Source of the DNA: an uncultured Gammaproteobacteria bacterium
GTDB lineage: Bacteria; Pseudomonadota; Gammaproteobacteria; Steroidobacterales; Steroidobacteraceae
NCBI GenBank assembly: GCA_963786705.1
Contig: CAWBAG010000027.1
Coordinates: forward strand, 1-64,000
Length of the DNA: 64,000 nt
Direction: 5' to 3'
Part shown: positions 10,560 through 33,132 of the stretch, piece by piece
How positions within the stretch are numbered: position 1 is the first letter of the stretch
Layout: every line of letters begins with the position of its first letter
Notes under the pieces: generated by a model
Told to the model about the DNA's origin: nothing
Databases searched by the model: none
What the model saw: only the letters and a program-made list of their open reading frames with translations
Made by a program: the position numbers and the translations under genes

Positions 10560-10633
10560 CCGAGCAGCATTCACACTCGCGTGCTGCTTTTCGCAGTTTC
10601 AGGCCGCGCTCGCTGCCTTGATATTTGTCCCGT

Positions 10634-11459: not shown

Positions 11460-11639
11460 GAGGGCTACCGTACGTCACGCTCGGACAGCTGACGCGGCTG
11501 TGCACAATCCGGGCAGCATACCCGAGCCGGAAATTCCGGTAGCATCCGCGCGCCGATCGACCGGATCGTACGGTCCGGATCGACACGCCCGAGACGAGTT
11601 CGGCCGTCCGGACGCACGCCCCGCGTAGCGTCGCGGATC

Positions 11640-12504: not shown

Positions 12505-12624
12505 TTCGGCGCTACCACGATCGGATCCCGCCTGCCGAGTGACCCGGTTCGTCACCGAACCCGATCCGCCTGACCTGACCTGCAATTCCCGAGCCATCAG
12601 TGACCGCTCTGGCAGGATGAATTC

Positions 12625-13057
12625 ATGTCCGCATGGGTTTGGTTCGCCGGAGCGGTACTGCTGTCGATCGCCGAGGTGCTCGGTGCGGAATTCGTACTGC
12701 TCATGCTCGGCGGCGGCGCCCTGGTCACGGCCGGCGTCGCGCTGCTGTTCCCGGAACTGTTGTGGCTGCAGCTGATCGTGTTCGCGCTGGCCTCGGTCGC
12801 GCTGGTGCTCGGACTGCGGCCGATGTTGCTGCGCAAGTACTACCAGCCGTCCGCGATCCGTACCGGCATCGAGGCGCTGATCGGGTCGAAGGCCACCGTC
12901 GTGTCCACCGTCGATTCCGACGGCGGGCAGGTCGAAGATCGGCGGCGAGGTCTGGTCGGCGGTGGGCATGGAAGGCCACCGCCCGCTGCCGCCGGGTACG
13001 TCCGTCACTGTCGTCGAGGTCCGCGGTGCCACCGCGGTCGTGATTTGGGGGCCATAA
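12625..13057 (+). CDS. NfeD-family membrane protein, frameshift near 12925
   Basis: Two N-terminal TM helices are present. The C-terminus KIGGEVWSAVGMEGHRPLPPGTSVTVVEVRGATAVVIWGP, followed by a stop, is in the +1 frame. Confidence 0.7.
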
Positions 13058-13062
13058 CCACC

Positions 13063-14400
13063 ATGGATCCAGTTCTGATCGTCGCCATCATCATCGTGGT
13101 CCTCGTGGTGGTGGTGCTCATGCGGTCCGTCAAGGTGATCCCGCAGGCCCAGGCCGCGGTGATCGAACGCCTCGGCCGGTTCAACAAGGCCAGCGGCGCC
13201 GGCCTGGTCTGGCTGATGCCGTTCGTCGACCGGATCCGGGCGCGCATCGACCTGCGCGAGCAGGTGGTGTCCTTCCCGCCGCAGCCGGTGATCACCGAGG
13301 ACAACCTGACCGTCTCGATCGACACCGTCGTCTACTTCCAGGTCACCGATCCGCGGGCTGCGGTGTACGAGATCGCGAACTACATCGTGGCCGTCGAGCA
13401 GCTGACCACCACCACGCTGCGCAACGTCGTCGGCGGGATGAACCTGGAACAGACGCTGACCAGCCGCGATTCGATCAACGGGCAGCTGCGCGGGGTGCTG
13501 GACGAGGCCACCGGCAAGTGGGGGATCCGGGTCGCCCGGGTCGAGCTCAAGGCGATCGACCCGCCGCCGTCCATCCAGGAGGCGATGGAGAAGCAGATGC
13601 GCGCCGACCGGGACAAGCGCGCGATGATCCTGAACTCCGAGGGCCTGCGCGAGTCGTCGATCAAGACCGCAGAGGGTCAGAAGCAGGCCGCCGTGCTGAC
13701 CGCGGAAGGCGCCAAGCAGTCCTCGATCCTGGCCGCCGAAGGTGAGCGGCAGTCCCGGATCCTGCGCGCCCAGGGCGAGCGCGCCGCCCGGTACCTGCAG
13801 GCACAGGGCCAGGCCAAGGCCATCGAGAAGGTGTTCGCCGCGGTCAAGGCCGGCAAGCCGACCCCGGAACTGCTGGCGTACCAGTACCTGCAGACGCTGC
13901 CGCAGATGGCGCAGGGCGACGCCAACAAGGTGTGGATGATCCCGAGCGATTTCTCCAAGTCGCTGGAGGGTTTCGCCCGGATGCTGGGCACCAAGGGCGA
14001 CGACGGAGTGTTCCGCTACGAGCCCCCGGCCGATGAGCCGGTCGACCCCGACAAGCCCAGGGCGCGGCCCGGCGACATCGACGACGACGTCGCCGACTGG
14101 TTCGAGGGCACCTCGGCCGCGGAGGTCGCCGAGGCCGTCAAGGCAGTGGAACGCGAGGCCGCGGTGACGATCGCCGACCAGGACGCCGCGCGGGCCGCCG
14201 CCTACCGGGACCGGGTGGAGATCGCTCCGCCGGTGTCCCCGCAACCGCCTGCGCCGCAACAGCTTCCACAGGGACACGACCAGGCCTACCCGGGTCGCGA
14301 CGAACCGCCGGCACCGGGATACCCGTACCAGCCGCCAGGCCCGCCGCAGCCCTACGGGCCGGGACAACGCCTGACCGGGCGGAGCCGCTCACCTCCGGAC
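13063..14400 (+). CDS. SPFH/band-7 (stomatin-like) protein with a Pro-rich tail; the 3' end is uncertain
   Basis: The product begins MDPVLIVAIIIVVLVVVVLMRSVKVIPQAQAAVIERLGRF, the classic band-7 domain. It is co-located with NfeD. Confidence 0.8.
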
Positions 14401-14414
14401 CAGACAGCCTGCCG

Positions 14415-15254
14415 GTGCCGGTGGCGATCGTCGGCGCCGGCCGGCTGGGCACGGCGCTGCTCGGCGCCCTGCGCGAGGCCGGGATTCCGGTCACCGGACC
14501 GCACGGTCGCGGATTTGACGGCACCGGTGCCGGGGTGGTGCTGCTGTGCGTTCCGGACGACGCGATCGCCGCGGCTGCCGACGCCGTCACCGCCCCCGGT
14601 GCGTTGCTGGGGCATTGCTCCGGGGCATCGCGGTTGGACGTACTGGGTGATCACGAGGGTTTCAGCCTGCACCCGTTGATGACGGTGACCCGCGACGGAG
14701 CCGATTTCCGTGGGGTCACCGCGGCGGTGGCCGGCCGGACGCCGCGAGCGCTGGCTGCCGCGACCGCGTTGGCCGGCGCACTCGGCCTGCGTGCCGTCCA
14801 GGTCGCGGAATCGGATCGGGCCGCGTATCACGCGGCCGCTGCCATCGCCTCGAACTTCCTGATCACCCTGCAGGACGCCGCCGCCGAGCTGATCGCGACG
14901 GCCGGGCTGGATCGCGGCGTGCTGCTGCCGCTGGCCAGGGCCGCGTTGGAGAATTGGGGCAAGGCCGGCCCTGCCGCTCTCACCGGACCTGTCGCGCGCG
15001 GCGACACCCGCACGGTCGACCTGCACCGGGACACCGTCGACAGAGCGGACGCCCGACCTGCTTGGCCTGTTCGATGCGCTGGTGGCGGCGACCGAACGGC
15101 TCGCCGCGCCGGACCGCGACCGCGGTCGAGGTGCGCCCCGCAGTGCGCGGCGGCACGCTGGAGGCCGGGCCGGATCCCGACAGCCGTCGGCCCGAGGATC
15201 AGGCCCACCGTCGATCCCCACGACCCTCGCGCATCGGAGTCCGCCAGCCCATGA
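14415..15254 (+). CDS. Rossmann-fold DUF2520-like protein (in the Rv3603c-like position upstream of panC), frame changes near 15040
   Basis: PVAIVGAGRLGTALLGAL is present. The segment ...PDLLGLFDALVAATERLAA is in another frame. The final stop forms an ATGA overlap with the panC start. Confidence 0.55.
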   Translation: MPVAIVGAGRLGTALLGALREAGIPVTGPHGRGFDGTGAGVVLLCVPDDAIAAAADAVTAPGALLGHCSGASRLDVLGDHEGFSLHPLMTVTRDGADFRGVTAAVAGRTPRALAAATALAGALGLRAVQVAESDRAAYHAAAAIASNFLITLQDAAAELIATAGLDRGVLLPLARAALENWGKAGPAALTGPVARGDTRTVDLHRDTVDRADARPAWPVRCAGGGDRTARRAGPRPRSRCAPQCAAARWRPGRIPTAVGPRIRPTVDPHDPRASESASP

Positions 15255-16180
15255 AAACCGTCCGCACGGTGCGCGATCTGCGCGCGGCTCTGTCGACGCA
15301 GCGCGCGGCCGGTGCGTCGGTCGCGTTGGTGCCCACCATGGGTGCCCTGCACGACGGGCACCTGGAACTGGCCAGGCGGGCCAGGGCCGAGAACGACGTC
15401 GTGGTGATGTCGATCTTCGTCAACCCCGCGCAATTCAACGACCCGGCCGATCTGGCCGCCTACCCGCGGGACGAGGCGGCGGACGCGGAGCTGGCCGCCG
15501 GGGTCGGCGTGGATCTGCTGTTCGTGCCGGCGGCGGCGGAGATCTACCCGCCCGGGTTCTCGGTGACCGTCGCGCTGCACGGGCCGATCGTGGAGACCCT
15601 CGAGGGCATCCAGCGCGGCGCCGGGCATTTCCGCGGTGTCACCACGGTGGTCAGCAAGCTGCTCAACATCGCCGGACCGCAGCGGGCGTACTTCGGCGCC
15701 AAGGACGCCCAGCAGGCACGGGTGGTGCGGGCCATGGTGGCGGATCTGAACATCGACACCGAGATCGTGACCGTGCCGACCGTCCGCGAACCCGACGGGC
15801 TGGCGATGTCGAGCCGCAATCGGCGGCTCAGCCCGGCCGAACGCCGCCAGGCGACGGGTCTGTTCGCTGCGCTGCGCGCCGCGCAGCAGATGAACTCCGG
15901 CGGCGAAGGGCGCGGTCAGGTCATCCTGGCCGAGGCCAACCGGATCCTGACCGAGCACGGCATCACGCCGGAGTACCTCGCGCTGGTCGACGCCGACACG
16001 TTCCTGCCCGCCACCACCGTCGGAGTGCAGCCGGCGGTGCTGCTGGTGGCCGCGCAGATCGGCAACACCAGACTGATCGACAATGTGCACCTGGATGCGC
16101 CCAATCGGTCAGGTAGCCGTCGATGGGCCACCAGGATCACGGTCAACGTGCGCCTGGGTGCGCCGAAGTCGGTCAGGTAG
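15251..16180 (+). CDS. panC: pantoate–beta-alanine ligase PanC; the 3' end runs into a tandem repeat
   Basis: The product begins MKTVRTVRDLRAAL and carries PTMGALHDGH and the full PanC core. The C-terminal roughly 30 codons are encoded by the repeat array. Confidence 0.85.
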   Translation: MKTVRTVRDLRAALSTQRAAGASVALVPTMGALHDGHLELARRARAENDVVVMSIFVNPAQFNDPADLAAYPRDEAADAELAAGVGVDLLFVPAAAEIYPPGFSVTVALHGPIVETLEGIQRGAGHFRGVTTVVSKLLNIAGPQRAYFGAKDAQQARVVRAMVADLNIDTEIVTVPTVREPDGLAMSSRNRRLSPAERRQATGLFAALRAAQQMNSGGEGRGQVILAEANRILTEHGITPEYLALVDADTFLPATTVGVQPAVLLVAAQIGNTRLIDNVHLDAPNRSGSRRWATRITVNVRLGAPKSVR

Positions 16181-16300
16181 CCGTCGATGGGCCAACCAGG
16201 ATCACGGTCAACGTGCGCCTGGGTGCGCCGAAGTCGGTCAGGTAGCCGTCGATGGGCCAGCCAACATCACGTCACCGTCCGCCTGGGCCCCCCAAGTCGG
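16095..16300. repeat. MIRU-like tandem repeat, about 3 copies of a 64-65 bp unit
   Basis: The motif tcggtcaggtagccgtcgatgggcca recurs at 16105, 16169 and 16234. The array overlaps the panC stop, as mycobacterial MIRUs often do. Confidence 0.8.
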
Positions 16301-16441
16301 TGAGGTGACAACAACCACTGGTGGAGTGGATCACACGTCCCACCGGCGCTGCTTTCCGGTGGTGGAATGGAACATTGCTGCCACCACGGCGGTTTCATCC
16401 TCATGCAGCGAATATCCGGCAGGCCAGCGAAGGAGCAGCCG

Positions 16442-17359
16442 ATGTCGACTCGTCCATCCGCCGACAACGCGCGGCGCCCGGTGACCATCCCCGGAGTGCT
16501 GGAGCAGAAGCGGTCCGGCCGGCCGATCGTGATGGTGACCGCCTACGACTATCCCAGCGCGCGGGCAGCGGAGGCCGCCGGCGTCGACATCGTGCTGGTC
16601 GGCGATTCCGGCGCGATGACCGTCCTCGGCCACCCGAGCACCGTGGCGGTCACTGTCGAGGAGATGCTGGTGCTGGCCAAGGCCGCCCGCCGCGGCACCG
16701 AGATCCCTTTGTTCATCGTGGATCTCCCGTTCGGGTCGTACGAGGTCAGCGACGAGCAGGCCATCGCGACCGCGGTCCGCATGGTCAAGGAAGCGGGCGC
16801 CGACGGCGTCAAGCTGGAAGGCGGCGGCCCGACGTCGGTCAGCAGAGCCAGGGCGATCGTCGGCGCCGGGGTGCCGGTGATGGGCCACGTCGGCCTCACC
16901 CCGCAGACCGCGACCGCGCTCGGCGGCTACCGCGCCCAGGGCCGCAGCGTCGAATCGGCGCTGAAGATCGCCCGTGGTGCGCTGGACCTGCAAGCCGCCG
17001 GCTGCTTCAGCATCGTGTTCGAGGCCGTGCCCAGCGTGCTGACCGAGGACCTGGTGCCGCTGATGCGCATTCCGGTGATCGGAATCGGGGCCGGGCCGGC
17101 CGCCGACGGTCAGGTGCTGGTGTTCCACGACCTGCTGGGCATCCGGGACGGCGCCGGGGCGAAGTTCGTCCGTCGGTACGCCGACCTGCAGGACGCCATG
17201 AACGAGGGCGTGGCCAGGTACGCGGCTGACGTCCGCTCTGGCGCGTTCCCGGCGCCCGAACACGGCTACGGGATGGATCCGGCCGAACTCGCGATCTACC
17301 AGGCGCGCCGTGGTGAGATCGCCACGGTCGCAGACGATCTGGCACAGTTGCTGCGGTGA
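16442..17359 (+). CDS. panB: 3-methyl-2-oxobutanoate hydroxymethyltransferase PanB
   Basis: The ORF is intact from M at 16442 and carries the PanB hallmark sequence. Confidence 0.85.
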   Translation: MSTRPSADNARRPVTIPGVLEQKRSGRPIVMVTAYDYPSARAAEAAGVDIVLVGDSGAMTVLGHPSTVAVTVEEMLVLAKAARRGTEIPLFIVDLPFGSYEVSDEQAIATAVRMVKEAGADGVKLEGGGPTSVSRARAIVGAGVPVMGHVGLTPQTATALGGYRAQGRSVESALKIARGALDLQAAGCFSIVFEAVPSVLTEDLVPLMRIPVIGIGAGPAADGQVLVFHDLLGIRDGAGAKFVRRYADLQDAMNEGVARYAADVRSGAFPAPEHGYGMDPAELAIYQARRGEIATVADDLAQLLR

Positions 17360-18584
17360 CCTCAGGGCAGGACGAGATCAGCGAGAATTCGACGCAGCCG
17401 CACGTGGTGGCGCTGACGTCCGCCCTGGTCAGGCTGCGGACCGTGCACGACTCGGAGTCCGCCGAGGTCGAAGACCCCGGCTGCCGAATTGCTGGCGACG
17501 ACGATGCGCGGCTTCGGCTGGGACGTCACGGTCACCGAGGTGGCGCCGGGGCGACCCAACGTCGTCGCACAGGTGCACGGTGCCGGGCCCGGTCGCACGC
17601 TGATGTTCGAGGGTCACCTCGACGTCGTGACCGAGGCCGACCCGGATCTGTGGTCGTTCGATCCGTTACAGCGGTGAGGTGATCGACGGCCGCCTGCGCG
17701 GCAGGGGATCGGCCGACATGAAGTCCGGTGTCGCCGCGATGGTGCACGCCGCCAGGGCCGTCCAACTCGGTGGGTTCGACGGCCGGATCATCCTGGGCGC
17801 GCTGGCCGACGAGGAAGGCATGATGCTCGGCGCCAAGTACTTCGCCGGCGATGTGCGGGCCGGTTTGTGGGGCGTCATCGACGGCGTGATCGTGTGCGAG
17901 CCCGAGGGCGGCGAGGTCTGCCCCGTCGCCAAGGGCGCGATCCGCCTGCAGGTGGAGCTGATCGGCGTGATGGCGCACGGCGCCATGCCGCAGATGGGCC
18001 GCAACCCGGTGCCGGCGATCGGTTCGCTGCTCGTGGGGCTGGACCAGATCCAGCAGGCGATCAGGGCGCAGACAGGCACGCACCCGTTGCTGGGCGAGTT
18101 CTCGCTGACCCCCACCGTGCTGCGGGCCGGCTCGCACGACCAGATCAACGTCATCCCGGCAACCGCCACCCTCGCGCTGGACATCCGCACCGTCCCCGGC
18201 GTGGATCATCGGATGTTGATCGAGTTGATCACTCGGCTGACCGACACGCTGGCCGCGGAATCGGGTCTGCATGCCCGGGTCACCGTGATCGACGACCGAC
18301 CCCCGGTGGACACGCCGGTCGACTCGCCCGTGGTCCAGGCGATGTTCGCCGGCCACCAGGCGGCGACCGGACGACCGGCCGTGCTCGGCGGCGTGCCCGG
18401 CACCACGGACGGCACCATCCTCACCCGCGACGCGGGATTGCCCACGGTCGTCTACGGTCCGGGCGGCAAGTGGATCGCTCACCAGGCCGACGAGTACGTC
18501 GAGGTGGAGGACATCGTGATCAGTACCCGTGCGTACATCAGCGCCGCCCGGCATTTTCTCGCCGACCGGCAGCCGCTCGGATGA
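17356..18584 (+). CDS. M20-family metallopeptidase (ArgE/DapE-like), two frameshifts near 17480 and 17665
   Basis: The GTG start at 17356 forms a GTGA overlap with the panB stop. The motifs HLDVV and GSADMKSG are present, and the C-terminal 300 aa are intact. Confidence 0.7.
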
Positions 18585-19726
18585 CCCTGAACGCGCTCGT
18601 GGACGTCCCGGGCATCCGCGTCGGTCACCACACCGCGACCGGTGACGGGTACCTCACCGGCACGACCGTGGTGCTCGCCCCCGACCTTGGGATGACGGCG
18701 AGCGTCGACGTGCGCGGCGGTGGGCCGGCCACCCACGAGACGGACCTGCTCGACCCTTCGGCCGCGGTGGAATCCGTTCATGCGCTGGTGCTCACCGGCG
18801 GCAGCGCGTACGGCCTGGCCGCCTGTTCCGGCGTGATGCTCGGATTGGAGGAGCGGGGGACCGGCCTGCCGGTCGGCGCCCAGCCGGGGGAGTTGGTGCC
18901 CATCGTGCCGGGCGCGGCGCTGTTCGACCTGGGTCGCGGGGGTGAATTCCGCGCCCGCCCGACCGCGGATTTCGGCAGGTCGGCGTTGCAGGCGGCGCTG
19001 GACGTGGACTCGGCGAACCTGGAATCAGGATCCGCCTCAATCGGCTCGATCGGCGCCGGGTGCGGCGCAGTGGCCGGAAACCTGAAAAGTGGCCTTGGAC
19101 AGGCGTCAATCGTGCTGGCCAACGGCATGGTGGTGGCGGCGCTGGTGGTGTGCAACGCCGCGGGTTCGCCGATCGACCCTGGCAACGGCGATCTGCTGGG
19201 TGCCCGGCACCTTCTCGCCGTCGACGGCCGGCGTCCATCGGCGGTCGCGGCCGATCGGCTGGCCGCCCTCAACGAGGCCGTGTACCGGCGACCCGACCGG
19301 CCCGTCTTCGCCTTCGACGGCGACAACCGGGGCCCCGAAAACCCCATCCAGCACACCACGCTGGCCGTGGTGGCGACCAGCGCGCCGCTGACCAAGAGCC
19401 GCTGCGCCAGGATGGCCGCGGTCGCGCACGACGGGATGGCCCGGGCCGTCAACCCCGTGCACACCATGTTCGACGGCGATCTGGTGTTCGGCGTCTCGAC
19501 CGGGGGAGCGGGATCAGCCCCTGCCAGGAATGAGCCGGATCCGCTGGAATTCCACGAGATCCTCACCGCAGCAGCTGATGTCGTGACGCGCTCGATCGTC
19601 CGGGGAATGCTGGCCGCCCGCTCCACCAGTACCGCCGCCGGAAGCTGGCCGTCCTGGGGCGAACTCGCCCACGGGATGATTCACCGGGCGCAGCATGCGC
19701 TCCGGCATGCTACCCTCATGCTGTGA
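18582..19726 (+). CDS. S58/DmpA-family (P1) aminopeptidase
   Basis: The ORF is intact from MTLNALVDVPGIRVGHHT and the start overlaps the M20 stop. Confidence 0.7.
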
Positions 19727-19920
19727 GCATGCTGCAGATCAAGAATCTTCCTGACGACGTTCATGCCGAACTGCGTCGGCGCGCAGAACGCGACGGCACC
19801 ACGATGTCGGCGCTGGCGGCACGGATTCTCACCGCGGCGATGTCCCGGCCGTCGATCGACGACTGGCTCGCGCGGTTCGCCGATCGACAAGGACCGACCG
19901 TGAGCGTCCGATCCACTTGA
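19723..19920 (+). CDS. vapB: ribbon-helix-helix antitoxin (VapB/FitA-like)
   Basis: A 65-aa product beginning MSMLQIKNLPDDVHAELRRRAERDGTTMSA. Confidence 0.75.
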   Translation: MSMLQIKNLPDDVHAELRRRAERDGTTMSALAARILTAAMSRPSIDDWLARFADRQGPTVSVRST

Positions 19921-19953
19921 CGCGCTGGACGAGGTCCGATCCGATCTCGGCAC

Positions 19954-20343
19954 ATGATCGTCATCGACGCCTCGGCGCTGCTGGACTTGATTCTCTTGCG
20001 TCCCAACGCTTCCCGTGTTGCGGACGCCATGAGGGGACAGTCCGTCGCCGCTCCCGAGCTGATCGTGGTGGAAACCTCTTCTGCGCTCGCGCGACTGGAG
20101 CGAGCGGGAGACCTTCATACCCACGATGCGGACATCGCGATCCGCGATGTGGGGGAGATGCCGATCTCGTTGGTTGGCCATTCTCCCCTGCACACCCGTG
20201 CGTGGGCGATGCGCGGGTCCCTTCGGGTGGCCGACGCCTTCTACGTCGCCTGCGCGGAACTGCTCTCCGCGCCGCTGCTCACCAGTGACGGGCGGCTGGC
20301 CCGCGCGCCGCTGTCCGGGGTGGCCGTCACGCTCGTCCGGTGA
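19954..20343 (+). CDS. vapC: PIN-domain toxin VapC
   Basis: The product begins MIVIDASALLDLIL and carries the C-terminal ...TSDGRLARAP. Confidence 0.8.
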   Translation: MIVIDASALLDLILLRPNASRVADAMRGQSVAAPELIVVETSSALARLERAGDLHTHDADIAIRDVGEMPISLVGHSPLHTRAWAMRGSLRVADAFYVACAELLSAPLLTSDGRLARAPLSGVAVTLVR

Positions 20344-20395
20344 GGTCGGTGGGGAAGGGCTCACACCAGGCACCGGGGGTAGCGTGGCGAGCACC

Positions 20396-20942
20396 ATGAC
20401 AGCACGCGCCCGGGCGATCGTGGCCGGAGCCGCGGTGACAGCCTCTCCTGCTCGCCGTACCCGCATCGGCGGACACCGGCGATGCGACGTCGCACGCCCA
20501 CGCGCCGGCGGTCGTCCTGATGGCCGCTCGCGGCGAGGTGATCGGCGGGGTCGACATCGACGCCGCCGTGGCCGACCTGGGCGACGACCATGTCACGGTG
20601 ATCGGCGACTCCGGTGCGACAACCGGCCTGGCCGAGGCGGTCTCGGAATCACGTGCGGACGGGCTGGGGTTGTCGGTGGTCTCGGTGGCGAGTTCGCTGA
20701 CCACCCAGCAGGCGATGGACATCGCCGGCGCCGTCCAGGTCCAGTCCGGCGGCACGGTGCTCGTGCTCGCTCCTGACGCGATCGGTTCGCGCAGCAACAC
20801 GGTGTCCACAGCGGCGGACGAGGACGCCAGGGGCGCGGCCGCGGAGGCCGCCGACCCACCGGCCGCGGTTCGTGCCTACACCGACGTGGCGACCGAGAAA
20901 CCGTTTGCATGGCATGGGCTGCAGAAGCCACCGCCGACCTGA
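20396..20942 (+). CDS. secreted hypothetical protein, frameshift inside the signal peptide (about 20445)
   Basis: MTARARAIVAGAAVTA is in one frame and LLLAVPASADTGDATSHA... in another. There is an AxA cleavage site. Confidence 0.45.
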
Positions 20943-21574
20943 TGCAGCCGAAGCAGTATCCGGCAGCCCAGGTCTTCACGTTTCTGTTCCTGATGCTCGG
21001 CCCGTTCAAGATCATCGGTCCCTTCTTGCAGATCGTGAAGGGAGCGGATGCGACGTTTGCGCGGCAGATTGCCGTGCGGTCGACCCTCTTTGCGACCCTC
21101 GTTCTACTAATCGCGGCAGTCCTCGGCCAGAGCGTCCTGACCAGTTACGGCATCCCATTACCCATTCTCGCTCTCTCCGGCGGGATCATTCTGTTGCTCG
21201 TCGCGCTGGGGCACGTCCTTCGTGAGTTCGCACCACCGAAGCCGCCTCGCGAGACAACTTCGGAGCCGGCCTCGGCAGCAACCTTGAACATGGCTTTGTC
21301 GCCGCTTGCCTTCCCGACGATTGTCACGCCGTACGGTATCGCTGCGCTCATCGTATTCCTTGCACTCAGTCCAGACCTGCAAGCTCGACTGGTCATCGGC
21401 GCCATCCTGTTGGCGATCATGCTGTTGAACCTGATCGTGATGCTGCTGGCCCAGCGCATGCGGCCGTGGATGGGCGCGTCGCTGCAGGTCCTGGGCGCAG
21501 TTCTCAGCGTCATTCAGGTGGCACTGGGACTGCGAATCATCCTCCTCTCGGTCAAGGCGATGGGGATGTCGTGA
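20942..21574 (+). CDS. marC: MarC-family (UPF0056) membrane protein
   Basis: The 210-aa product has six TM segments. GC is roughly 10 points lower than the flanks. Confidence 0.7.
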   Translation: MQPKQYPAAQVFTFLFLMLGPFKIIGPFLQIVKGADATFARQIAVRSTLFATLVLLIAAVLGQSVLTSYGIPLPILALSGGIILLLVALGHVLREFAPPKPPRETTSEPASAATLNMALSPLAFPTIVTPYGIAALIVFLALSPDLQARLVIGAILLAIMLLNLIVMLLAQRMRPWMGASLQVLGAVLSVIQVALGLRIILLSVKAMGMS

Positions 21575-21631
21575 GGCTGCCTCTGCCGCGAGTGTTCTTC
21601 AGGTCGTGGCCGCTGACGCCGGGCGCATGAA

Positions 21632-21877
21632 GCCCCTCTCGCGGCGAAAAAAGAAGAGGGCAAGCCCATCGGTCCGCTCGACACTCTAATCGCGGCGCAC
21701 GCGCTTGAGCTCGGGGCCGTGCTCGTCACCAGTAACGCGCGGGAGTTCGCGCGGGTACCGGCTCTGTCGGTCGAGGACTGGGTGGCCAGAGCAGAACGGT
21801 TCTGCAACTTGAGACGTCGCAACACGGCGGCAGGCCGGATACGACTGAAAGTGGCTGGCGCCCGACGAAAGGATTGA
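21632..21877 (+). pseudogene. VapC (PIN) C-terminal fragment without an N-terminus
   Basis: The translation EEGKPIGPLDTLIAAHALELGAVLVTSNAREFARVPALSVEDW has no in-frame start. Confidence 0.6.
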
Positions 21878-22100
21878 GGATACGCAACTGACGATCGATG
21901 AGCTGGCCGTGCTGCAGGTATTCGCAGGACAGCACCTGGCCGCCGGCGATCAGCGCCGCCGCTATCAGCAGCGAGTCGTACAGCGAGAATCCGTAGCGCT
22001 CCACGAGCGCCAGCGCCGCATCCTGGATGCCTCGAAACTGGCCGACGTCTTCGGCATCGACATGGCGGGCCGCGACACGAAGGCGCCGCCAACCCGTGCT
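21850..22100 (-). pseudogene. second VapC (PIN) remnant, convergent with the first
   Basis: The translation is ...HVDAEDVGQFRGIQDAALALVERYGFSLYDSLLIAAALIAGGQVLSCEYLQHGQLIDRQLRILNPF. An upstream stop falls before any plausible N-terminus. Confidence 0.5.
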
Positions 22101-22254
22101 TCTACAGACGCAAGACAGAAGGCACTGATGCCCAGACAGCCGAAAATAGTCTCACCGAAGCGCAAGAGACTTCGGTGACCCGGAAGTCATGCGATCGTGA
22201 CCGTCTCAGGCACGCTGGCGTTGGTCGCTGTCGCGACACTGACGTTGGTCGCTG

Positions 22255-22276
22255 TCGCGACACTGACGTTTCACCT
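22255..22276. promoter_or_regulatory. 22-bp perfect palindrome TGACGTTTCAccTGAAACGTCA (operator-like or bidirectional terminator), 3' of the hemerythrin gene
   Basis: A perfect 10-bp inverted repeat with a 2-bp spacer is visible in the sequence. It lies directly after a 24-bp direct duplication at 22214..22261. Confidence 0.4.
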
Positions 22277-22323
22277 GAAACGTCAAGCGCTACTTGACAA
22301 TCACTTCGCCGACGTCGGCCGAC

Positions 22324-22725
22324 CTAGACCTGTGTCTGCAGGAACCGGTGCAGCCGCGCGTCGTAAGTCTTGAAATGGTCACCAAACCACGCGGCCAGGC
22401 GGTCCGAGAAGGCATTGTCGTCGAGCACCCCGTGCTCAATGTGCTCGTCCATGATGTCGCGGATATCGTCGAGCAATCGCTCATGATCCACCTTGTGCGC
22501 GCCGAAATCCGGGTACCGGCGCGCCTGCATGTCCTTCTCTTCCAGCGCGAAATGGGCCGAGATGCGGGCGTAGATCTCGCCGAGGAATTCCTCGATACGA
22601 TCGGAGGTCCGGTCCGCACCCAACGCGGCATGCAGTTCGTTGATGAGGCCGATCAATACCTGGTGCTCATGGTCCACCTCGGCAATGCCGATGCGGAATT
22701 CGTCGCGCCATTCGAGCAGGCTCAC
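22324..22725 (-). CDS. bacteriohemerythrin
   Basis: A 133-aa product with hemerythrin His/Glu/Asp ligand motifs (EVDHEH, HFALEE, HKVDHERL, GDHF). AGGAGG lies 7 nt upstream of the GTG start. The start forms a GTGA overlap with the upstream gene's stop. Confidence 0.85.
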   Translation of the reverse strand: MSLLEWRDEFRIGIAEVDHEHQVLIGLINELHAALGADRTSDRIEEFLGEIYARISAHFALEEKDMQARRYPDFGAHKVDHERLLDDIRDIMDEHIEHGVLDDNAFSDRLAAWFGDHFKTYDARLHRFLQTQV

Positions 22726-23231
22726 GGTGGCACCTCCTGGGTGGCCAGCCCGTGTGCCGGCGCGCGCCCGAACTGGAAGCCTCCTTCCGTGCCGCGAAAG
22801 TCGATGACGAAGTTCTGGCCGGGCACGAGCAGGACGGTCGCGACACTCGCATAGTCGAATCCCGTCGCACGGCCGCTGTCGCGCAGCCGCACCTCGAATC
22901 GATGCCGGCCGGCCGGCACGCGGAAGCTCGCGTAGACGGTGGACGGACCATCGTCCCACAGGCCTGCTGGCTGGTGGGTGGCGCGGTGTATCTGCCGCCC
23001 GTCGAGGTCGAGTTCCACATAGACCGGCCAACGGCCGCGTTCGCACGTCGTCGCGCGCCGCTGGTTGAACGGCAGCTTCGCGAGTTCCTGGGGACTGTAG
23101 TGCCGGCACGGCTTGAGCGGCTGCGAGGCATGACTGAAGCTGAGCTTGAGCAGGGCCTGGTCGTGGTGGAGGTACGCGTAGGTCGGCCGCGTGGCAAACC
23201 AGCCGATCAGCAGGGCCAGGGCTCCCAGCAT
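22722..23231 (-). CDS. hypothetical N-terminally anchored (probably periplasmic) protein, about 169 aa
   Basis: The TM anchor is MLGALALLIGWFATRP. It is translationally coupled to the hemerythrin gene. No family was recognised. Confidence 0.5.
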   Translation of the reverse strand: MLGALALLIGWFATRPTYAYLHHDQALLKLSFSHASQPLKPCRHYSPQELAKLPFNQRRATTCERGRWPVYVELDLDGRQIHRATHQPAGLWDDGPSTVYASFRVPAGRHRFEVRLRDSGRATGFDYASVATVLLVPGQNFVIDFRGTEGGFQFGRAPAHGLATQEVPP

Positions 23232-23272
23232 TGCCGCGGCACCGACGACCCGCAGGGGCGCTGCCAGCTGGC

Positions 23273-24838
23273 TCAGTCGTGGCGCGCCAGGCGAGACCCG
23301 TCCGGCCCGGCAGTGGGGAGCGCGACAACGGCCCGCAGGTGCTGTCGGAATTGCGCGAGCGTCTGTCGTGTTCGATGCTGTTGCACCGGTGACGCCCAGG
23401 AGACGGCCACCCGGTCGCGATCCACGCGATCGCGCAGGTGCGGATCCCTCTGGTTGGCAATGCGCTCGTCCACCCACCGGTTGCCGAGCCGCTCGAAGCA
23501 GTCTTCCTCGGCACAACCGGCGATCAGCACGCCGTCGGCGTGCTTGCGCGAGATCACCAGGTCGATGAACGACGGCGGCAGCATCGCGACGCAGGGCATC
23601 GGCACGACGGCGACCCCCGGATCCGCCAGCGCATCGAGATTGCCGGCGTGGGCGCATCGGAAGACGACGACGCGGTCGTTGCCCTGCAGCTTGCCTGTAG
23701 CGGCGATCACCTGGTCGCGCAAGCCTGCGATGGGAGCGGCAGGCAGTTCGATGCCAGGCACCAGTGCGCTCGCGCGGCGGAACGGCGTGGCCGTCGGGCA
23801 CGCGCCGACGCAGATCCCGCAGCTCATGCAGAGGCCAGGATCGACGCGGGCTTCCTGGTCGAACTCGGCGCCGTCCGTCCGCCCGACCATCGTGATCGCG
23901 CCGAACGGGCAGTCCGCGAAACAGCGGCCGCAGCCATTGCAGTTGTCGAGGTGGACCACGGCGGGCGGCGCCTGGCGCAGCGGTGGCAGCCACGGCAGCA
24001 AGGTGAGGAACACGCTGCCGCCGACCAGCGCCGCCCAGAGCGTGCGGCCGCTCACGACGTCGAGCAGGGGATACACGGTCAGATAGAACCAGTCGACGCC
24101 GACGTCGAACGGGGCCCGGTCAAGGTCCGCCGGCGCCTGGCTCATGGCCGGCACGACGAGCGAAAGCGCAACCAGCATCCCGAACACGGCGAGCCCGAGC
24201 CGGCGCGGCGGGTTCACGCGCGCATGCGCGTGGCGCTGGATGTGCACCCACATGAACAGCAGCATGATCAACGGCACGGCGATGTGGATGTAGGCCATCA
24301 GCGTGAAGAACCGCCCGCTCAGGTGCGAGCTGTCGAGGAAGTTCCGCGCGATCGGCTCCGCAAAGATGCCGATGCTGTCGAGCCACTCCGTGGTGGCGAT
24401 GGCGACGTATTGCGCGAGCTGGTCCCAGACGAGCCAGTAGCCGGTGATGCCGCAGGCATAGAGGAACCACAACAACGGCACGCCGGTGACCCACGGGAAC
24501 CAGCGGTTGCCGCGCATGCGATCCATGGCGAATTCGCGCAGCATGTGCAGGATGACGACCACGACCATCGCGTCCGAGGCGTAGCGATGCAGGCTGCGCA
24601 TGATGCCGCCGAGGTACCACTGCTCGCGCGACAGGTACTCGAGCGATGCGTAGGCCTGGGTCACGCCCGTGTCGAAGAACACGTAGACGTAGATGCCGGT
24701 GACGGTGACGATCCAGAACAGGAACCAGCCGAGCGACCCGAGTTGCACGAGGGGATTCAGCACCGGGCCGAAGAACTTCTCGCAGGCCTGCTCGAGTCTC
24801 AGGAAGAGGGCGCGCAGTGACGCCTTGAGCAGCTTCAC
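23273..24838 (-). CDS. fusion protein: di-heme cytochrome b (bc-type N-terminal domain), 2x[4Fe-4S] ferredoxin and MvhD/FlpD-like iron-sulfur domain
   Basis: The 521-aa ORF is intact. It has His-x13-His pairs in TM helices (HRYASDAMVVVVILH and HIAVPLIMLLFMWVH). The cysteine motifs are CNGCGRCFADCP and CMSCGICVGACP. The C-terminus carries FRCAHAGN...PCVAM...IAGCAEEDC. Confidence 0.75.
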   Translation of the reverse strand: MKLLKASLRALFLRLEQACEKFFGPVLNPLVQLGSLGWFLFWIVTVTGIYVYVFFDTGVTQAYASLEYLSREQWYLGGIMRSLHRYASDAMVVVVILHMLREFAMDRMRGNRWFPWVTGVPLLWFLYACGITGYWLVWDQLAQYVAIATTEWLDSIGIFAEPIARNFLDSSHLSGRFFTLMAYIHIAVPLIMLLFMWVHIQRHAHARVNPPRRLGLAVFGMLVALSLVVPAMSQAPADLDRAPFDVGVDWFYLTVYPLLDVVSGRTLWAALVGGSVFLTLLPWLPPLRQAPPAVVHLDNCNGCGRCFADCPFGAITMVGRTDGAEFDQEARVDPGLCMSCGICVGACPTATPFRRASALVPGIELPAAPIAGLRDQVIAATGKLQGNDRVVVFRCAHAGNLDALADPGVAVVPMPCVAMLPPSFIDLVISRKHADGVLIAGCAEEDCFERLGNRWVDERIANQRDPHLRDRVDRDRVAVSWASPVQQHRTRQTLAQFRQHLRAVVALPTAGPDGSRLARHD

Positions 24839-24878
24839 GCCGGTCGCCCCCGTCCGCCGGCCGCAACCGCTGCATGAC

Positions 24879-25720
24879 TCAACGCGAGTTCCGCCAGGAT
24901 ACTGCGATGACGACAGCCACCATGCCGAGGGCGAGAATTCCCGCGATCGCGTCGGCCACGATCGAATAGTCGAAACGATAGCGACCGCTGGCGGGATCGT
25001 AGATCGTGCAGAACAGTTTCACCGACCGGGCGAGCCCGGCGAGCGTGCCGCGCTCGATCTCCTGGCCGCGGACGAGGCGCTTCAGCGGCTCGACGAGACT
25101 TGGCGGGTTGAAGTCCTGCCCGTACACCTGCAGTGTCACGCGCCCGGTGCCGTCGATGACGGTGGTCTGCGTGATGTGGTCGAATCCCTTGGGCGACGGC
25201 CGGTAGGTGAAGCCGACGTCGCGCGCCAGTCGCTCCAGCGTCGCGGTGTCCGTGCTGGCGAAATACCAACCCGGCAATGCCGGCGCCACGCTCCTGCGCA
25301 TACAGCCGCATCCGTGCCGGCGTGTCGTTGGGCGTGTCGAATCCGACCGTCAGGACGGTGAAGCTGTCCGGTCCGAGCGCTCGCCGCGCCACCTTGGCGA
25401 CGTCGCGCAGGTGCACGGTCAGGCCGGAACAGACCTGGTAGCAACTCGTGTAGACGAGGCTCAGCACGACCGGCTTGCCGCGGAGGCTCGACAGCCGGAA
25501 CGCCCGGCCGCGTTGATCGACAAACTGGTAGTCATCGAGTTGCCGGTTGATCGCGGCCTGGCTGGTCGCCAGCGCGGTGGTCGTCGTCAGGAGCCGGCGT
25601 CTGCGCAAGGGCACCTGCGGCCATCGCCCAGGCGCAACCCGAGCAGGAGTCCGCCGTGCAGCGTTGACCTGCGATGGGGCCTGCGCATGGCTCAGTAGAC
25701 GACCAGGCGGCCTGACAGGG
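24879..25720 (-). CDS. sco: SCO1/SenC copper chaperone (copy 1), frameshift near 25260; the start is uncertain
   Basis: The CxxxC region is VVLSLVYTSCYQVCS and there is a C-terminal TM. The two halves lie in ORF 24835..26073 and ORF 24879..25301. An extra T is apparent in GGGTTGGTAT. Confidence 0.7.
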
Positions 25721-25753
25721 CTCCGTCGACGATGGCCCCGACCAGCAGCAGGC

Positions 25754-26640
25754 TCAACTGCAGCAGCGAGGCCAGGAAGTTGCGGATTGCGTTCTGCCGT
25801 GTCGGTGCGCGGACGAGGAGGACGCTTCGGTAGACGAAATACGCGCCGCCGGCTGCGGCACAGGCGAGATAGGAGTTCCCTGCGCCCCAGGCCGACCGGC
25901 AACAGCGCGAGCAACACGAGCAGCACGGTGTGCCCGAGGATCACGCGAGCCGCGACGCGATCGCCGATACACCACCGGCAGCATCGGCACGCCGGCGTCG
26001 GCGTAGTCCTGCCGGTAATACATCGCGAGGCTCCAGAAGTGCGGCGGGGTCCAGAGAAACAGGATGACCGCAAACGTCCATGCGGCCGGGCCCAGGCCTG
26101 GATTCACCGCCGCAGCACCGGCCAGCACGGCGAAACTGCCGGCGAGGCCGCCGACGACGATGTTCAGCCACGTCCGCCGCTTGAGCCAGAGCGTGTAGAC
26201 GACGCCGTAGGTGAACGCGCCGAGGAACACGAAGGCGGCTGCCAGCCAGTTCGTCGCCAGGCCGGCCGAGACGACCGCAACGGCCAGCAGCAAGCCGATC
26301 ACCGCGAACCATGGCGCAGCCGCCGTCGAGCTGCCCGGTGACGAACGGACGGCCGCGAGTGCGCGACATGCGCGCGTCGAGGTCGCGTTCGGCCAGGTGA
26401 TTGAGCGCACCGGCGCTCGCAGCGGCCAGGAAGACCGCGATCGCAAGAACCAGCAACTGCGCACGGCGGCAACCCGGGGCCCTGGGCCATCGCGACGCCC
26501 GCGATGCCGGCGAACATGATCTCGAGGGCGATGCGCGGCTTGAAGACCTCGACCGTGCTCCGCCAGGAAGCCCGATTCGCTGCGAGGTCCGCATCCTGCG
26601 CGACTGCTTGGTGCACGTTCGCTCCTACCGCAGCGGCCAG
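25754..26640 (-). CDS. ctaB: protoheme IX farnesyltransferase (heme O synthase) CtaB/CyoE, at least 3 frame changes
   Basis: The N-terminus is RSTVEVFKPRIALEIMFAGIAGVAMA. The middle is ALNHLAERDLDARMSRTRGRPFVTGQL. The C-terminus is FVFLGAFTYGVVYTLWLKRRT...LWTPPHFWSLAMYYRQDYADAGVPMLPVV. All three parts are in different frames. Confidence 0.7.
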
Positions 26641-28328
26641 ACCTCGGCAAGGTACTTCCAGTTCACGAAGTAGTACAGGACGAACGACACGAAGAACACG
26701 CCGACCAGCACGATCGTGCCGGGGATCTTGAGCGTTCCCTCGTTGCCGTAGCGCGCCACGGCCGCGGCCGATGCCGCGCCGGACACCGGACCGAGCTGCA
26801 CCACTTCGCTGTCGCCGATCCTGCGGCCGAAGAAGACCGAGCAGACGACGACGAGAATGTACATCGCGCCGCCGATCGCGGCCATGATCGCGGACATGCC
26901 GTTGAGCGCCAGCATCAGGAACGCCGCGGGCGAGAACTGGAACTGGCGTGAGCGCGTCCGCGAACGTGATGTCCCAGTGCCTGCGGGGCACGCCGAGCGT
27001 GCCGGCGCCCATCATGAACAGCGAGATGCCGGCAACGCCCAGCCCGAAAATGTAGGGCTGCAGCTGGGCGACCTTCCTGAACATGACCTCGCGACGGAAG
27101 ATCAGCGGTACGAGGAGATACGTGATCGCCATGAACGCGAGCGTCGTGCCGGCGACCACGGTCGCGTGGAAATGCCCCGGCACGTACAGCGTGTTGTGCA
27201 TGATCAGGTTGATCTGCTCGGTGCCCATCACGACGCCGGAGATGCCGCCGAGGAAGCCGAACATGACCAGCGACAGGAACATGCCGGCAAATGCCGGGTT
27301 GCCCCAGGGCGCCTTGCGCAGCCACTCGAACAGGCCCTTGTTGTAGCCCTTGGCGCGCTGCGCCGCCTCGATGGCGCCCGGCACCGTCATGCCGTGGATC
27401 ATGCTGCCGAGCACGGCGAGGTACATCGCGTAGCTGGTGTTGAAGATCTTCCAGCTCGAGCTCACGCCGGGCTCGACCAGCATGTGGTGCGCGCTCGCGA
27501 GCTGCAGGAACAGGATGTACATGAGGAACGCCATGCGGCTGACTTTCTCGGAGATCGGCTTGGCGCCGAGCACCATGGCGCCGATCGCGTACCACACGGC
27601 GACGTGCGCGGAGACGTTGATCTGCTGCGAGGAGTGGCCCATGCCCCACCAGACCAGCTTGTACATCAGCGGGTCGATGCCGCTGATGATGCCGAGCGAC
27701 CAGAGGAAGGTCGGGATGAGGATGATCGCGCCGCAGGCCAGCGTGAACACGGCGATGATCGCCGCCGTGATGGCGCCGAAGGTGACCAGCGGCACCGATC
27801 CCTCGTAGGTCTTCTCGTCCTTGGCAACGACCAGCGTGCCGAAGAAGACCGCGCAGCCGATCAGGGCACCCACGGCGAACAGGACGAGGCCGAGGTAGAA
27901 GTGCGGCGCCGCCAGCAACGGCGCGTAGGAGGTGAACATGACCGAGGAGTTGCCCTGGAGCACCGCGACGTTGGTCATCAGCGCGCCGACCAGCATCAGC
28001 CAGAACTGGACCCATCCCCAGCGTGGCGCGGCAAGCCGTGAATTGAGCAGTACCGCGGAGGCGAAATACAGCACCGCCATCTCGAAGAAGATGATCCAGA
28101 CGAGCAGCACGTCGATGCCGTGTGCGGTCAGCGCGCAGGTAGAACCAGTCGGCCGGCAGCAGGTGCACGGCAGGCCAGCGTGTCAGCGCGACCGACAGGC
28201 CGAACAGGCCACCGACGAGCAGGAACACGACGGCGGCGACGGCGTTCGACCTTGATGAGGTTTTCCGCCGAACGGTCGATCCGCAGGCCGGTCGTCGGGC
28301 AGGTGCGAAAGATGGTTGCAACTGTCAT
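26625..28328 (-). CDS. cbaA: heme-copper oxidase subunit I, B-family (ba3-like) CbaA, several frame changes
   Basis: Most of the protein is in ORF 26299..28110 (GHFHATVVAG, HHMLVEP). The C-terminal TM helices are in ORF 26625..26915. The N-terminus is in other frames. Confidence 0.7.
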
Positions 28329-28338
28329 GACGGCCCGC

Positions 28339-28875
28339 TCAGTTCTTGTCGACGACGTAGATGCGACCGGTCATCGTGTGATGCCCGAAGCCGCAGTACT
28401 CGTTGCAGACGACGCCGAACTGGCCGGATTGATTCGGCGTCATCGTCACGACCATCTCGTATCCGGGGTGTACCTGGATGTTGATGTTGACGGGCTGGAG
28501 GGAGAAGCCGTGCTGCAGATCGATGGACGAGAGGTGCAGCCGGTAGGTCTCGCCCTTGACGAACTCGAGCATCGGCCACCACATGTAGACGCGACCCATC
28601 ATGTAGACGTCGCTGCCGGGCGGGGGTCGCACGACCGGGAATGCACCTTCCTGGCGCACCGTGTACGTCTCGACCATCTTGTCGACCTTGGCCGCGAAGT
28701 CGGCTGGCGTCGTCCTGTAGGCCTCGTTCGAGAGATTCTGGCTTCCGGCGCCATGCCAGTAGATCATCATGAAGAACATCACGATTCCCCACAGGAACGC
28801 GATGCTGGCCCAGATCAATTCGACCTTGTGAACGGGCTCTTTCCACCAGTTTGCGCCCGGAGATGCGATTGACAT
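28339..28875 (-). CDS. cbaB: ba3-type cytochrome c oxidase subunit II (CuA)
   Basis: A 178-aa product with a single TM and the CuA motif CNEYCGFGHHTM. Confidence 0.85.
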   Translation of the reverse strand: MSIASPGANWWKEPVHKVELIWASIAFLWGIVMFFMMIYWHGAGSQNLSNEAYRTTPADFAAKVDKMVETYTVRQEGAFPVVRPPPGSDVYMMGRVYMWWPMLEFVKGETYRLHLSSIDLQHGFSLQPVNINIQVHPGYEMVVTMTPNQSGQFGVVCNEYCGFGHHTMTGRIYVVDKN

Positions 28876-28890
28876 GGCTGCTGTCTCCGG

Positions 28891-29061
28891 TCACGGCGTG
28901 GCGATGGGAATCTGGATGATTTCCATGATTCCCCAGATGAGATAGACGACCGTCGGGATCGTGACGCCGAGGAACAGCAGCAGGAAATGGTTGTCGAGCA
29001 GACGCTGGAAGAACGGCGTGCGTTCGGGACGATCGGGCTCGGTGGGTTGCGGTCCGGACAT
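28891..29061 (-). CDS. 56-aa single-TM protein directly upstream of cbaB (subunit IIa/CbaD-like), absent from the ORF track
   Basis: The product is MSGPQPTEPDRPERTPFFQRLLDNHFLLLFLGVTIPTVVYLIWGIMEIIQIPIATP. It stops 15 nt before the cbaB ATG. Confidence 0.5.
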   Translation of the reverse strand: MSGPQPTEPDRPERTPFFQRLLDNHFLLLFLGVTIPTVVYLIWGIMEIIQIPIATP

Positions 29062-29239
29062 GAGACCCCCTGGCGTTCGCCTGTCTATGTCGTACGGGTC
29101 GCCCCTGCCACCCGGTACATCCGGCGCTTGTTAGCACTTACGTGAGCGTACGTCCTTGATATAGATCAAGCGCACTGCAAAAAAGAAAGCTGCGCCGCAC
29201 CGGGACTGTGCCCGCAGACGCTGTCTCGACCGGTCGCGG

Positions 29240-29437
29240 CTAGCCCGCTCCGACGCAGCGGCGGATCAGCGCAAATGTGACGAGGCTGAGCCCGAGCAAC
29301 AGCCCGAAGAAGATCAACGAGCGATACTCGAACCGCCGGCCAGCGCGACGCTCGAGCGAGTCGAGCAGGCGGTCGCAGACCAGGTAGAGAACGATCGCGG
29401 CGAGCGTGAAATAGACGGTCGTCATTCGCAATCGCAC
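29240..29437 (-). CDS. small 2-TM membrane protein (PLD-nuclease N-terminal-domain-like)
   Basis: A 65-aa product with a basic loop between two TM helices. Confidence 0.4.
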   Translation of the reverse strand: MRLRMTTVYFTLAAIVLYLVCDRLLDSLERRAGRRFEYRSLIFFGLLLGLSLVTFALIRRCVGAG

Positions 29438-29511
29438 CAGGCGCGCCTGCGGCCCCGAGTAGCGCAGGATGCTAGCAGGTTCGGTCGATTCTCAGGACGG
29501 GGCCCCGACGC

Positions 29512-30504
29512 TCATCGGGTCGGCCGCAGAAATCGCAGCAGCGCGACCGTGGCCAGCACGAGCAACGCCGCCACGCCGTTGTGCGCGACTGCCAGCGGCA
29601 ACGGGAAGGTCCTCAGCACCATCACCGGCCCGAGCAGGAGCTGGGCTGCGAGCACGGTCGCGAGGACAACCCCGGTCGTGCGGACACCGCCTGACCGCCC
29701 GAGACGAATCGCCTTCCAGGCCGTGACGGCCAGCACGAGCGCCGTGACGATCGCACCGAGCCGGTGCGTGAAATGGATTGCCACGCGCGCCGGGTGGTCG
29801 AGCACGCCGCCCTCGTAATCGATGCCGAGACCGCGCCAGAGCACGAAGGCATCGCGGAAATCCATCTGCGGCCAGTACGACGCCTGGCAAGTCGGGAAGT
29901 CGGGACAGGCGAAGGCCGCGTAATTGGAACTGACCCAGCCGCCGAGCATGATCTGCACCGCGAGCACGACCAGGCCGAACACGGCCCACGTGCGCAGGCT
30001 GCGCTCGACGGCAGGCGGGGTCGTCCGCGCAGGCTCGAGGTACAGCCACCACAGCAGCGCCATCGTGGTGAGTCCGCCCACGAGGTGCGCCGAGACGATC
30101 AGCGGCTTCAGCAGCAGCGTTACCGTCCACATGCCGAGCAATCCCTGGAACACGACGAGCAGCACCAGCGCTGCGGGCAGCCCCACCGGTTGCCGCCGGT
30201 CGCGACGGTTGCGCCACGCGATCACCGCGAGCGCGACAATCACGAGGCCGAGCGTCGACGCGAGATAGCGATGCACCATTTCCTTGAGCGCCTTGTCCGC
30301 CTCGAGCGGCCGCTCGGGATACGCGGCGTTCGCGACCGCGGAGTTCTCGACCGCGTCGCCGACCGTCAGGTGGCCGTAGCAGCCCGGCCAGTCCGGGCAG
30401 CCGAGGCCCGCGTGGCTCAGGCGCACGTACGCGCCGAGCACGATCACGCAGAAGGCGAGGACCGTGCCCAGCAGGCAGAGCCGGCGAAATGTCGAGTTGT
30501 GCAT
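29512..30504 (-). CDS. ctaA: heme A synthase CtaA/COX15
   Basis: The ORF is intact from MHNSTFRRLCLLGTVLAFCVIVLGAYVRL and carries the conserved Cys pair CPDWPGC. Confidence 0.85.
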   Translation of the reverse strand: MHNSTFRRLCLLGTVLAFCVIVLGAYVRLSHAGLGCPDWPGCYGHLTVGDAVENSAVANAAYPERPLEADKALKEMVHRYLASTLGLVIVALAVIAWRNRRDRRQPVGLPAALVLLVVFQGLLGMWTVTLLLKPLIVSAHLVGGLTTMALLWWLYLEPARTTPPAVERSLRTWAVFGLVVLAVQIMLGGWVSSNYAAFACPDFPTCQASYWPQMDFRDAFVLWRGLGIDYEGGVLDHPARVAIHFTHRLGAIVTALVLAVTAWKAIRLGRSGGVRTTGVVLATVLAAQLLLGPVMVLRTFPLPLAVAHNGVAALLVLATVALLRFLRPTR

Positions 30505-30518
30505 GACGTAGACCTGGG

Positions 30519-31900: not shown

Positions 31901-31936
31901 CTATACTCTGCTTCCAACGCGTCCGGCCTCCCGCAC

Positions 31937-32146: not shown

Positions 32147-32204
32147 CCAGGCGCAACGGCCGCCCGTGGGCGGCCGCCGTGTCCGCCCGTCGCCGGGACT
32201 GCGG

Positions 32205-33086: not shown

Positions 33087-33132
33087 GGGCGTCTGCCTCT
33101 GTCTTCTGTCTGGCGTGTGTGTCGAACCAAGC

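Follow-up and report, generated by a model that had tools for sequence, protein, structure and literature searches.

Does the contig that supplied the 64,000 nucleotides analysed here (the window; contig CAWBAG010000027.1 of assembly GCA_963786705.1) record a transfer of DNA between two bacterial phyla, or were two unrelated genomes joined while the sequence was being produced, and at which position do they meet? The original prediction described a switch from actinobacterial to proteobacterial genes across 21.5-22.3 kb, took a lower-GC zone with toxin gene remnants as the boundary, and named a chimeric join and an inter-phylum transfer as the two possible causes. Comparison of each flank with its own relatives shows that the switch is a single point, at 20905/20906, which lies 35 bp to the left of the interval originally indicated (20940-22330). 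The window very probably represents a chimeric contig, with a join that arose in the sequencing or assembly of a (long-read) metagenome. Its main divisions are as follows.

Positions 1-20905, no strand: actinobacterial segment (Nakamurella-like or Mycobacteriales MAG-like), as judged from collinearity with the contigs L004 and L003, the PanB protein and a left-type tetranucleotide signature throughout.
Positions 20905-20906, no strand: junction of two genomes, where the homology to L003 and L004 stops (20905) and the homology to contig L002 starts (20906).
Positions 20906-64000, no strand: Steroidobacteraceae-like gammaproteobacterial segment, as judged from collinearity with L002, the COX1 cluster, contigs with the same RpoZ and a right-type tetranucleotide signature throughout.

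An unsupervised change-point scan, in which the window was divided into 250-bp blocks and all splits were scored for tetranucleotide divergence with no boundary preset, gave a peak at 20750-21000 with a score of 1070, against 164 ± 24 (maximum 265) for block permutations. This region at ca. 20.75-21.0 kb is the sole strong compositional break in the window; in a 4-kb sliding profile the tetranucleotide signature is left-type throughout before it and right-type throughout after it. Codon usage, which along with tetranucleotide profiling had been suggested as a check on the switch, changes as well: the share of ACC among the threonine codons falls from 0.73 in the left segment to 0.30 in the right one, and that of ACG rises from 0.22 to 0.61. 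The GC content is 70.4% for positions 1-20905 and 67.9% for 20906-64000, and falls to 61-63% over 20.9-22.3 kb; for marC, which lies in this zone and to which a GC content of roughly 58% had been ascribed, we measured 61.1%. A secondary composition split near 38 kb was considered as a second taxonomic switch and rejected, as it corresponds to a high-GC bioD-bioC/H-bioF-bioB operon that retains the right-type signature.

The left segment harbors genes for MoxR, a DUF58 protein, a FabG1-like protein, InhA/FabI, two NlpC/P60 proteins (RipA/DIP1281-like), an SPFH protein, PanC, PanB, M20 and S58 peptidases, VapB/VapC and an Rv1476-family protein. Over 14.6 kb (window 6286-20905) it is collinear, at 83-89% nucleotide identity, with L004, a 144-kb contig of the metagenome-assembled genome MFD01872.bin.2.243, which is classified as 'uncultured Actinomycetota'. 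A second actinobacterial contig, L003, matches window positions 19115-20905 at 94.4% nucleotide identity. The PanB protein is 95% identical in amino acid sequence to those of L004 and of L005, a 'Mycobacteriales bacterium' MAG, and 78-79% identical to PanB of Nakamurella sp. MAGs, and a partial Rv1476-like protein named as Nakamurella sp. is 92% identical to the one in the window. The actinobacterial character of these genes, as predicted originally, is clear. Their attribution to mycolic-acid actinobacteria goes further than the comparison does, with nearest named relatives among Nakamurella, 'Mycobacteriales bacterium' and 'uncultured Actinomycetota' MAGs, for which mycolic-acid production is undemonstrated; the scores of FabG1 and InhA are slightly under the NCBIfam cut-offs that are specific for mycolic acid synthesis. 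Close to the end of this segment lies a toxin-antitoxin pair:

Positions 19723-19920 and 19954-20343, plus strand: vapB (RHH, frameshifted) and intact vapC (PIN), by Pfam FitA-like_RHH and PIN matches, on the actinobacterial side.

The same vapB-vapC pair occurs in L003, where it is likewise followed by the Rv1476-family gene, and relative to L003 the window vapB is shortened by a 1-bp insertion at 19906.

Genes to the right of 20906 encode MarC, a hemerythrin, a cytochrome b/Fe-S protein, several cox sets, the bioD-C/H-F-B products, NhaA, RecG, RpoZ-SpoT, prepilins and a PilY1/PilC-type adhesin. In gene content this is in agreement with the original prediction, which named rpoZ-spoT, bio genes, cox genes, pilin genes and pilY1. 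From 20906 to 34832 the window is collinear, in one block of 13.9 kb and at 97.8% identity, with L002 (ENA ERZ25039492 contig_18543, 1.02 Mb). The 90%-identity cluster of the COX1 protein holds three proteins named 'Steroidobacteraceae bacterium', and the gene order of pilin, rpoZ and spoT is the same in JGI contigs whose RpoZ is identical to that of the window. The best matches of the two flanks are to different phyla, i.e. Actinomycetota (Nakamurella/'Mycobacteriales') on the left and Steroidobacteraceae on the right, and not to one organism, the outcome named originally as a refutation of the switch.

At the junction the two sets of homologies abut; every base is accounted for, and any ambiguity in the overlap amounts to no more than a few bases. 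The join is a single point with nothing inserted, and beyond it the relatives of either side carry a different continuation. Two reading frames are affected:

Positions 20520-20942, plus strand: hybrid open reading frame, composed of a truncated Rv1476-family gene (Pfam Rv1476 positions 5-126 of 156) and out-of-frame last codons derived from marC.
Positions 20909-21574, plus strand: marC (Pfam MarC), truncated at the 5' end by the join and encoding 221 amino acids, compared to 251-259 in relatives.

In the Rv1476-family relatives P0005 (299 amino acids, in the same 90%-identity cluster) and P0003, the sequence ATEKPF(P)W is followed by a transmembrane helix, at which place the window protein reads HGLQKPPPT and stops. 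The copy in L004 is full length (profile positions 5-152 of 156). Past the break, L003 and L004 both carry CCCCTGGTCGATC, which belongs to the remainder of the Rv1476-family gene, and in L004 this gene is followed by genes for a DUF998 protein, an NDH-2-type oxidoreductase and a DUF2252 protein. Conversely, the MarC relatives P0022-P0024 (251-258 amino acids, at least 90% identity) have ca. 36 additional N-terminal residues ahead of the sequence AWAAEATADL, and in L002 marC runs 111 bp further upstream, with an AraC-type gene beyond it. The break removes from the Rv1476-family gene its 3' end, which encodes the C-terminal transmembrane part, and leaves marC without its 5' end. At 20940-20944, a TGATG stop/start overlap was considered as native translational coupling and rejected, as the stop codon is a product of out-of-frame read-through of marC DNA. 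A break at ca. 21590-21630, where a VapC remnant starts and the homology to another marC-carrying contig (L001) ends, was also rejected because L002 is continuous there with more than 99% identity.

Signatures of a biological junction were looked for around the join. A repeat search of the window revealed no direct or inverted repeats flanking 20905/20906, and no target-site duplication or filler base occurs at this position. There is no tRNA gene in the whole window, and no integrase, transposase or IS element is present among the identified genes within ca. 5 kb of the join; its neighbours are panB, the M20 and S58 peptidase genes, vapBC and the Rv1476-family gene on the left, and marC and the hemerythrin and cytochrome b genes on the right. 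Sequences resembling ONT adapters were not detected within 200 nt of it when allowing up to 6 errors.

The combination of the composition break, the collinearity on both sides, the truncation of both genes, relatives from different phyla, the lack of a junction signature and the occurrence on one contig favours a chimeric contig. Such contigs, for which metagenome assemblies and MAGs are screened with GUNC-type tools, are similarly characterized by an abrupt switch in taxonomy, oligonucleotide signature and codon usage within the contig, by sides that are collinear with different lineages, by genes truncated at the join, and by the absence of a biological junction signature. Of the two causes put forward originally, these findings strongly favour the join over a transfer. 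A real junction would mean that one organism carries both segments, either a member of the Steroidobacteraceae that took up 21 kb or more of Nakamurella-like chromosome or the opposite, as the result of a very recent illegitimate recombination in which no mobile element took part. The join is indeed present in the deposited contig, and illegitimate recombination would also leave neither adapter nor filler. However, the genes of the foreign block (panBC, fabG1-inhA, ripA-like, moxR) are core housekeeping genes in collinear order, with no accessory cargo among them, its donor signature and codon usage are unameliorated, none of the elements that mediate or mark integration was found, and both genes at the join are destroyed. 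Moreover, every retrieved relative that covers the break point shows the unbroken native arrangement. We consider a real junction extremely improbable; were it real, against this evidence, chromosomes of two phyla would have recombined recently and on a large scale, which would be extraordinary. Formally, a strain-specific real event may still be envisaged, the relatives being 83-98% identical to the window and not 100%.

The comparison with genomic islands leads in the same direction. The window shares with these a block of foreign composition beside native sequence and toxin-antitoxin debris in the vicinity. Unlike genomic islands, it shows none of the usual border elements (integrase, tRNA, direct repeats, IS element), its core genes stand in donor synteny, the sequence does not return to that of a host within the window, and the toxin-antitoxin debris is native to the other side.

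The hybrid open reading frame is recorded as a gene product of 140 amino acids (P0001), the tail of which is derived from marC DNA, and it is found on one contig of 302,370 bp only. A contig of this length is also the recorded source of the MarC, hemerythrin, cytochrome b, VapC, COX1 and RpoZ proteins of the window. With P0001 and proteins of both sides on this contig, the join must be present in the deposit and was not made by cutting the window. The junction pattern is absent from the GTDB representative genomes. It was also unmatched in JGI metagenomes, a negative result that carries no weight because a native control pattern from the right side was unmatched there as well. These records also bear on the step at which the join was made. 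Two contigs of a contaminated bin might have been concatenated after assembly, by a scaffolder, by the submitter or in building the window, and a blunt, filler-free join of two genomes would look alike in that case. The 302,370-bp contig, with P0001 called across the join, excludes the cutting of the window as the source, and there is no run of N at the join, which scaffolders normally leave. Joining after assembly is therefore quite improbable. The result would be an artefact all the same, and only the step of origin would differ. Of the probability that the preferred explanation leaves, most falls to such other routes to an artefact.

We return to a chimera formed during sequencing or assembly as the preferred explanation. 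Graph-based chimeras usually result from a repeat, or a conserved gene, that the two sides share where they meet. The present case differs from these in that no such repeat or gene is found and the join is blunt to the base. The lack of shared sequence makes a repeat-induced graph error unlikely and points to a chimeric read or template instead of an erroneous path. The most likely source would be a physically chimeric long read, or a few of them, formed by ligation of two DNA fragments during library preparation; in the assembly such reads would have become a bridge between two contigs that are genuine in themselves, and this bridge would have survived polishing. A typical soil Nanopore read is shorter than 20.9 kb. 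As the actinobacterial part measures at least 20.9 kb, a chimeric read would have served as the bridge only and would not have supplied the whole foreign part.

Several features of the sequence are in agreement with a long-read origin. Compared to relatives from short-read data, genes in the left segment are broken by single-base insertions in the M20 peptidase gene (17666), in vapB (19906) and in the N-terminal part of the Rv1476-like gene (20445), and on the right side a COX1-like gene, nhaA and recG are split. Frequent gene-breaking single-base indels of this kind are what a long-read consensus is expected to show. Contig names of close relatives are in the style of the Flye assembler. The MAG that contains L004 belongs to the Microflora Danica set, which was built with Nanopore sequencing, metaFlye and Medaka, and in the passages of that text found by keyword search there is no mention of a screen for chimeric contigs (PMC12313526). 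An attempt to read a coverage step at the join from the density of indels was dropped, as frameshifts occur on both sides and the relatives are either too divergent or are long-read assemblies themselves.

The join is not a biological discovery, and the value of its description is that of a curation flag. Two phyla are mixed in the public 302-kb contig and in any MAG that is based on it, and uncritical use would introduce false signals of inter-phylum transfer, false pangenome content and false taxonomy. The case also illustrates that, even where repeats are absent, comparison of each flank with its own relatives can locate a blunt chimeric join to the base without reads.

An odd feature is the mosaic structure of marC. 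The window gene (20906-21590) is ca. 90% identical to the syntenic marC of L002, which we call locus B, and positions 20912-21590 are 96.2% identical to a non-syntenic marC at another locus, locus A, found in L001 and also in L089 and L090. L089 and L002 originate from the same sample. At the informative sites the window is B-type in 20906-20911, nearly all A-type in 20916-21250, alternating between A and B in 21253-21568, and B-type thereafter. The pattern might indicate a chimera of three parts, in which a 0.68-kb piece of locus-A marC is placed between the Nakamurella-like DNA and locus B with its hemerythrin-cox genes, in line with the higher identity to L001 than to L002 and the long A-type run. 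Yet the first six positions after the join are B-type, the A and B sites further on alternate and show no single switch, and the homology to L002 is unbroken across the supposed second break. The alternation is better explained by a third allele, or by paralogues undergoing gene conversion, than by another blunt join, which makes such a join unlikely and a three-part chimera highly improbable. The mosaic may have arisen by conversion of one paralogue by another, from a third allele or by mixing in the consensus. We have counted it, as only partly explained, among the points against the preferred explanation.

Both marC and the zone to its right, originally regarded as the boundary, are wholly proteobacterial and are present in L002 apart from one extra copy of a 24-bp unit. 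The zone contains the following features.

Positions 21617-21874, plus strand: C-terminal remnant of a VapC (PIN) toxin, matching NCBIfam VapC positions 86-130 of 130 (E 1e-14) and Pfam PIN positions 79-118 of 120.
Positions 21864-22034, minus strand: second, convergent C-terminal remnant, PIN-like and weakly supported, by a match to PcrIIC1 (PDB 8wmm).
Positions 22219-22266, no strand: exact 24-bp tandem duplication, CGTTGGTCGCTGTCGCGACACTGA twice, single copy in L002.
Positions 22264-22285, no strand: 22-bp palindrome, TGACGTTTCA-CC-TGAAACGTCA, downstream of the hemerythrin gene and conserved in L002.
Positions 22324-22725, minus strand: bacteriohemerythrin gene (Pfam Hemerythrin), with which intact genes resume to the right of the remnants.

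Over 21575-22330, between the stop codon of marC and the hemerythrin gene, L002 matches the window with more than 99% identity, and the hemerythrin gene adjoins the cytochrome b/Fe-S, SCO and cox genes in exactly the arrangement seen in L002. We infer that the zone of marC, toxin remnants and palindrome is ordinary native proteobacterial intergenic debris that is unrelated to the join.

Two convergent VapC remnants had been proposed in this zone. The one on the plus strand is confirmed by the NCBIfam match; it comprises only approximately the last 45 residues of VapC, has a stop codon upstream and is nearly identical in L002, and it has neither a complete PIN domain with its acidic catalytic residues nor an antitoxin gene beside it. 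The assignment of the remnant on the minus strand is less certain, as it gave no match in Pfam (E up to 0.1) or NCBIfam (E up to 1) and shows a weak similarity to residues 80-136 of 136 of PcrIIC1, i.e. the C-terminal 57 (E 1.8e-5); it is identical in L002. Both resemble degraded VapBC (PIN) loci, with some 45 C-terminal VapC residues on the plus strand, a convergent C-terminal fragment beside them, and neither an antitoxin nor an N-terminal half for either fragment. They differ from such loci in being pseudogene fragments that make up no working module and that a related strain has retained with hardly a base changed, and in that the minus-strand fragment is missed by the PIN models of Pfam and NCBIfam. 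The 24-bp direct duplication and the 22-bp palindrome were both found as predicted. Since the 24-bp unit is present in single copy in L002, the extra copy in the window would be a strain polymorphism or a consensus error.

The second-ranking composition split in the window lies at about 38 kb, with a score of 296 as compared to a null maximum of 222, and coincides with a block of 72-75% GC (37000-47500) which carries bioD, bioC/bioH, bioF, bioB, nhaA, ubiA and recG. Since this block retains the tetranucleotide signature typical of the proteobacterial side, a second join near 38 kb was ruled out.

The marC gene is 96% identical to a non-syntenic copy versus about 90% to the syntenic copy. At fine scale, region 20906-21590 mixes two allele types, that of the second, non-syntenic locus A (contigs L001, L089 and L090) and that of locus B in L002, the collinear Steroidobacteraceae-like contig.

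On the actinobacterial side, three genes are frameshifted by one-base insertions (at 17666, 19906 and 20445) relative to the short-read relatives L003, an actinobacterial contig, and L005, a Mycobacteriales bacterium. The second insertion leaves vapB with 65 amino acids versus 86 in L003, and the third displaces the N-terminus of the Rv1476-like gene. The insertions look like long-read consensus errors. Splits or fusions across frames also occur on the proteobacterial side. The affected genes on the two sides include:

17489-17677 and 17679-18584, M20 peptidase of the actinobacterial side, in two pieces (insertion at 17666)
26299-28182, COX1-like gene, split or fused
42953-44448, nhaA, split or fused
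44132-45917, ubiA/recG, split or fused

Gene fragments are more numerous in L002 than in the window; L002 also encodes P0027, an 837-amino-acid ORF in which cytochrome b and hemerythrin are fused.

Within 22219-22285, a 24-bp unit is tandemly duplicated, whereas L002 has one copy. A conserved 22-bp palindrome overlaps the end of the duplication; no T-run follows it, and it is therefore not an obvious intrinsic terminator. The remnant peptide encoded at 21864-22034 (minus strand) was not recognized by the PIN models of Pfam and NCBIfam; it ends in RILNPF, resembling the C-terminus of PcrIIC1 (PDB 8wmm).

Two tandem repeats are found on the actinobacterial side:

1830-2210, 36 bp, 10.6 copies
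16081-16306, 65 bp, 3.5 copies, in the panC-panB interval

The latter may be the element called MIRU-like in the original prediction.
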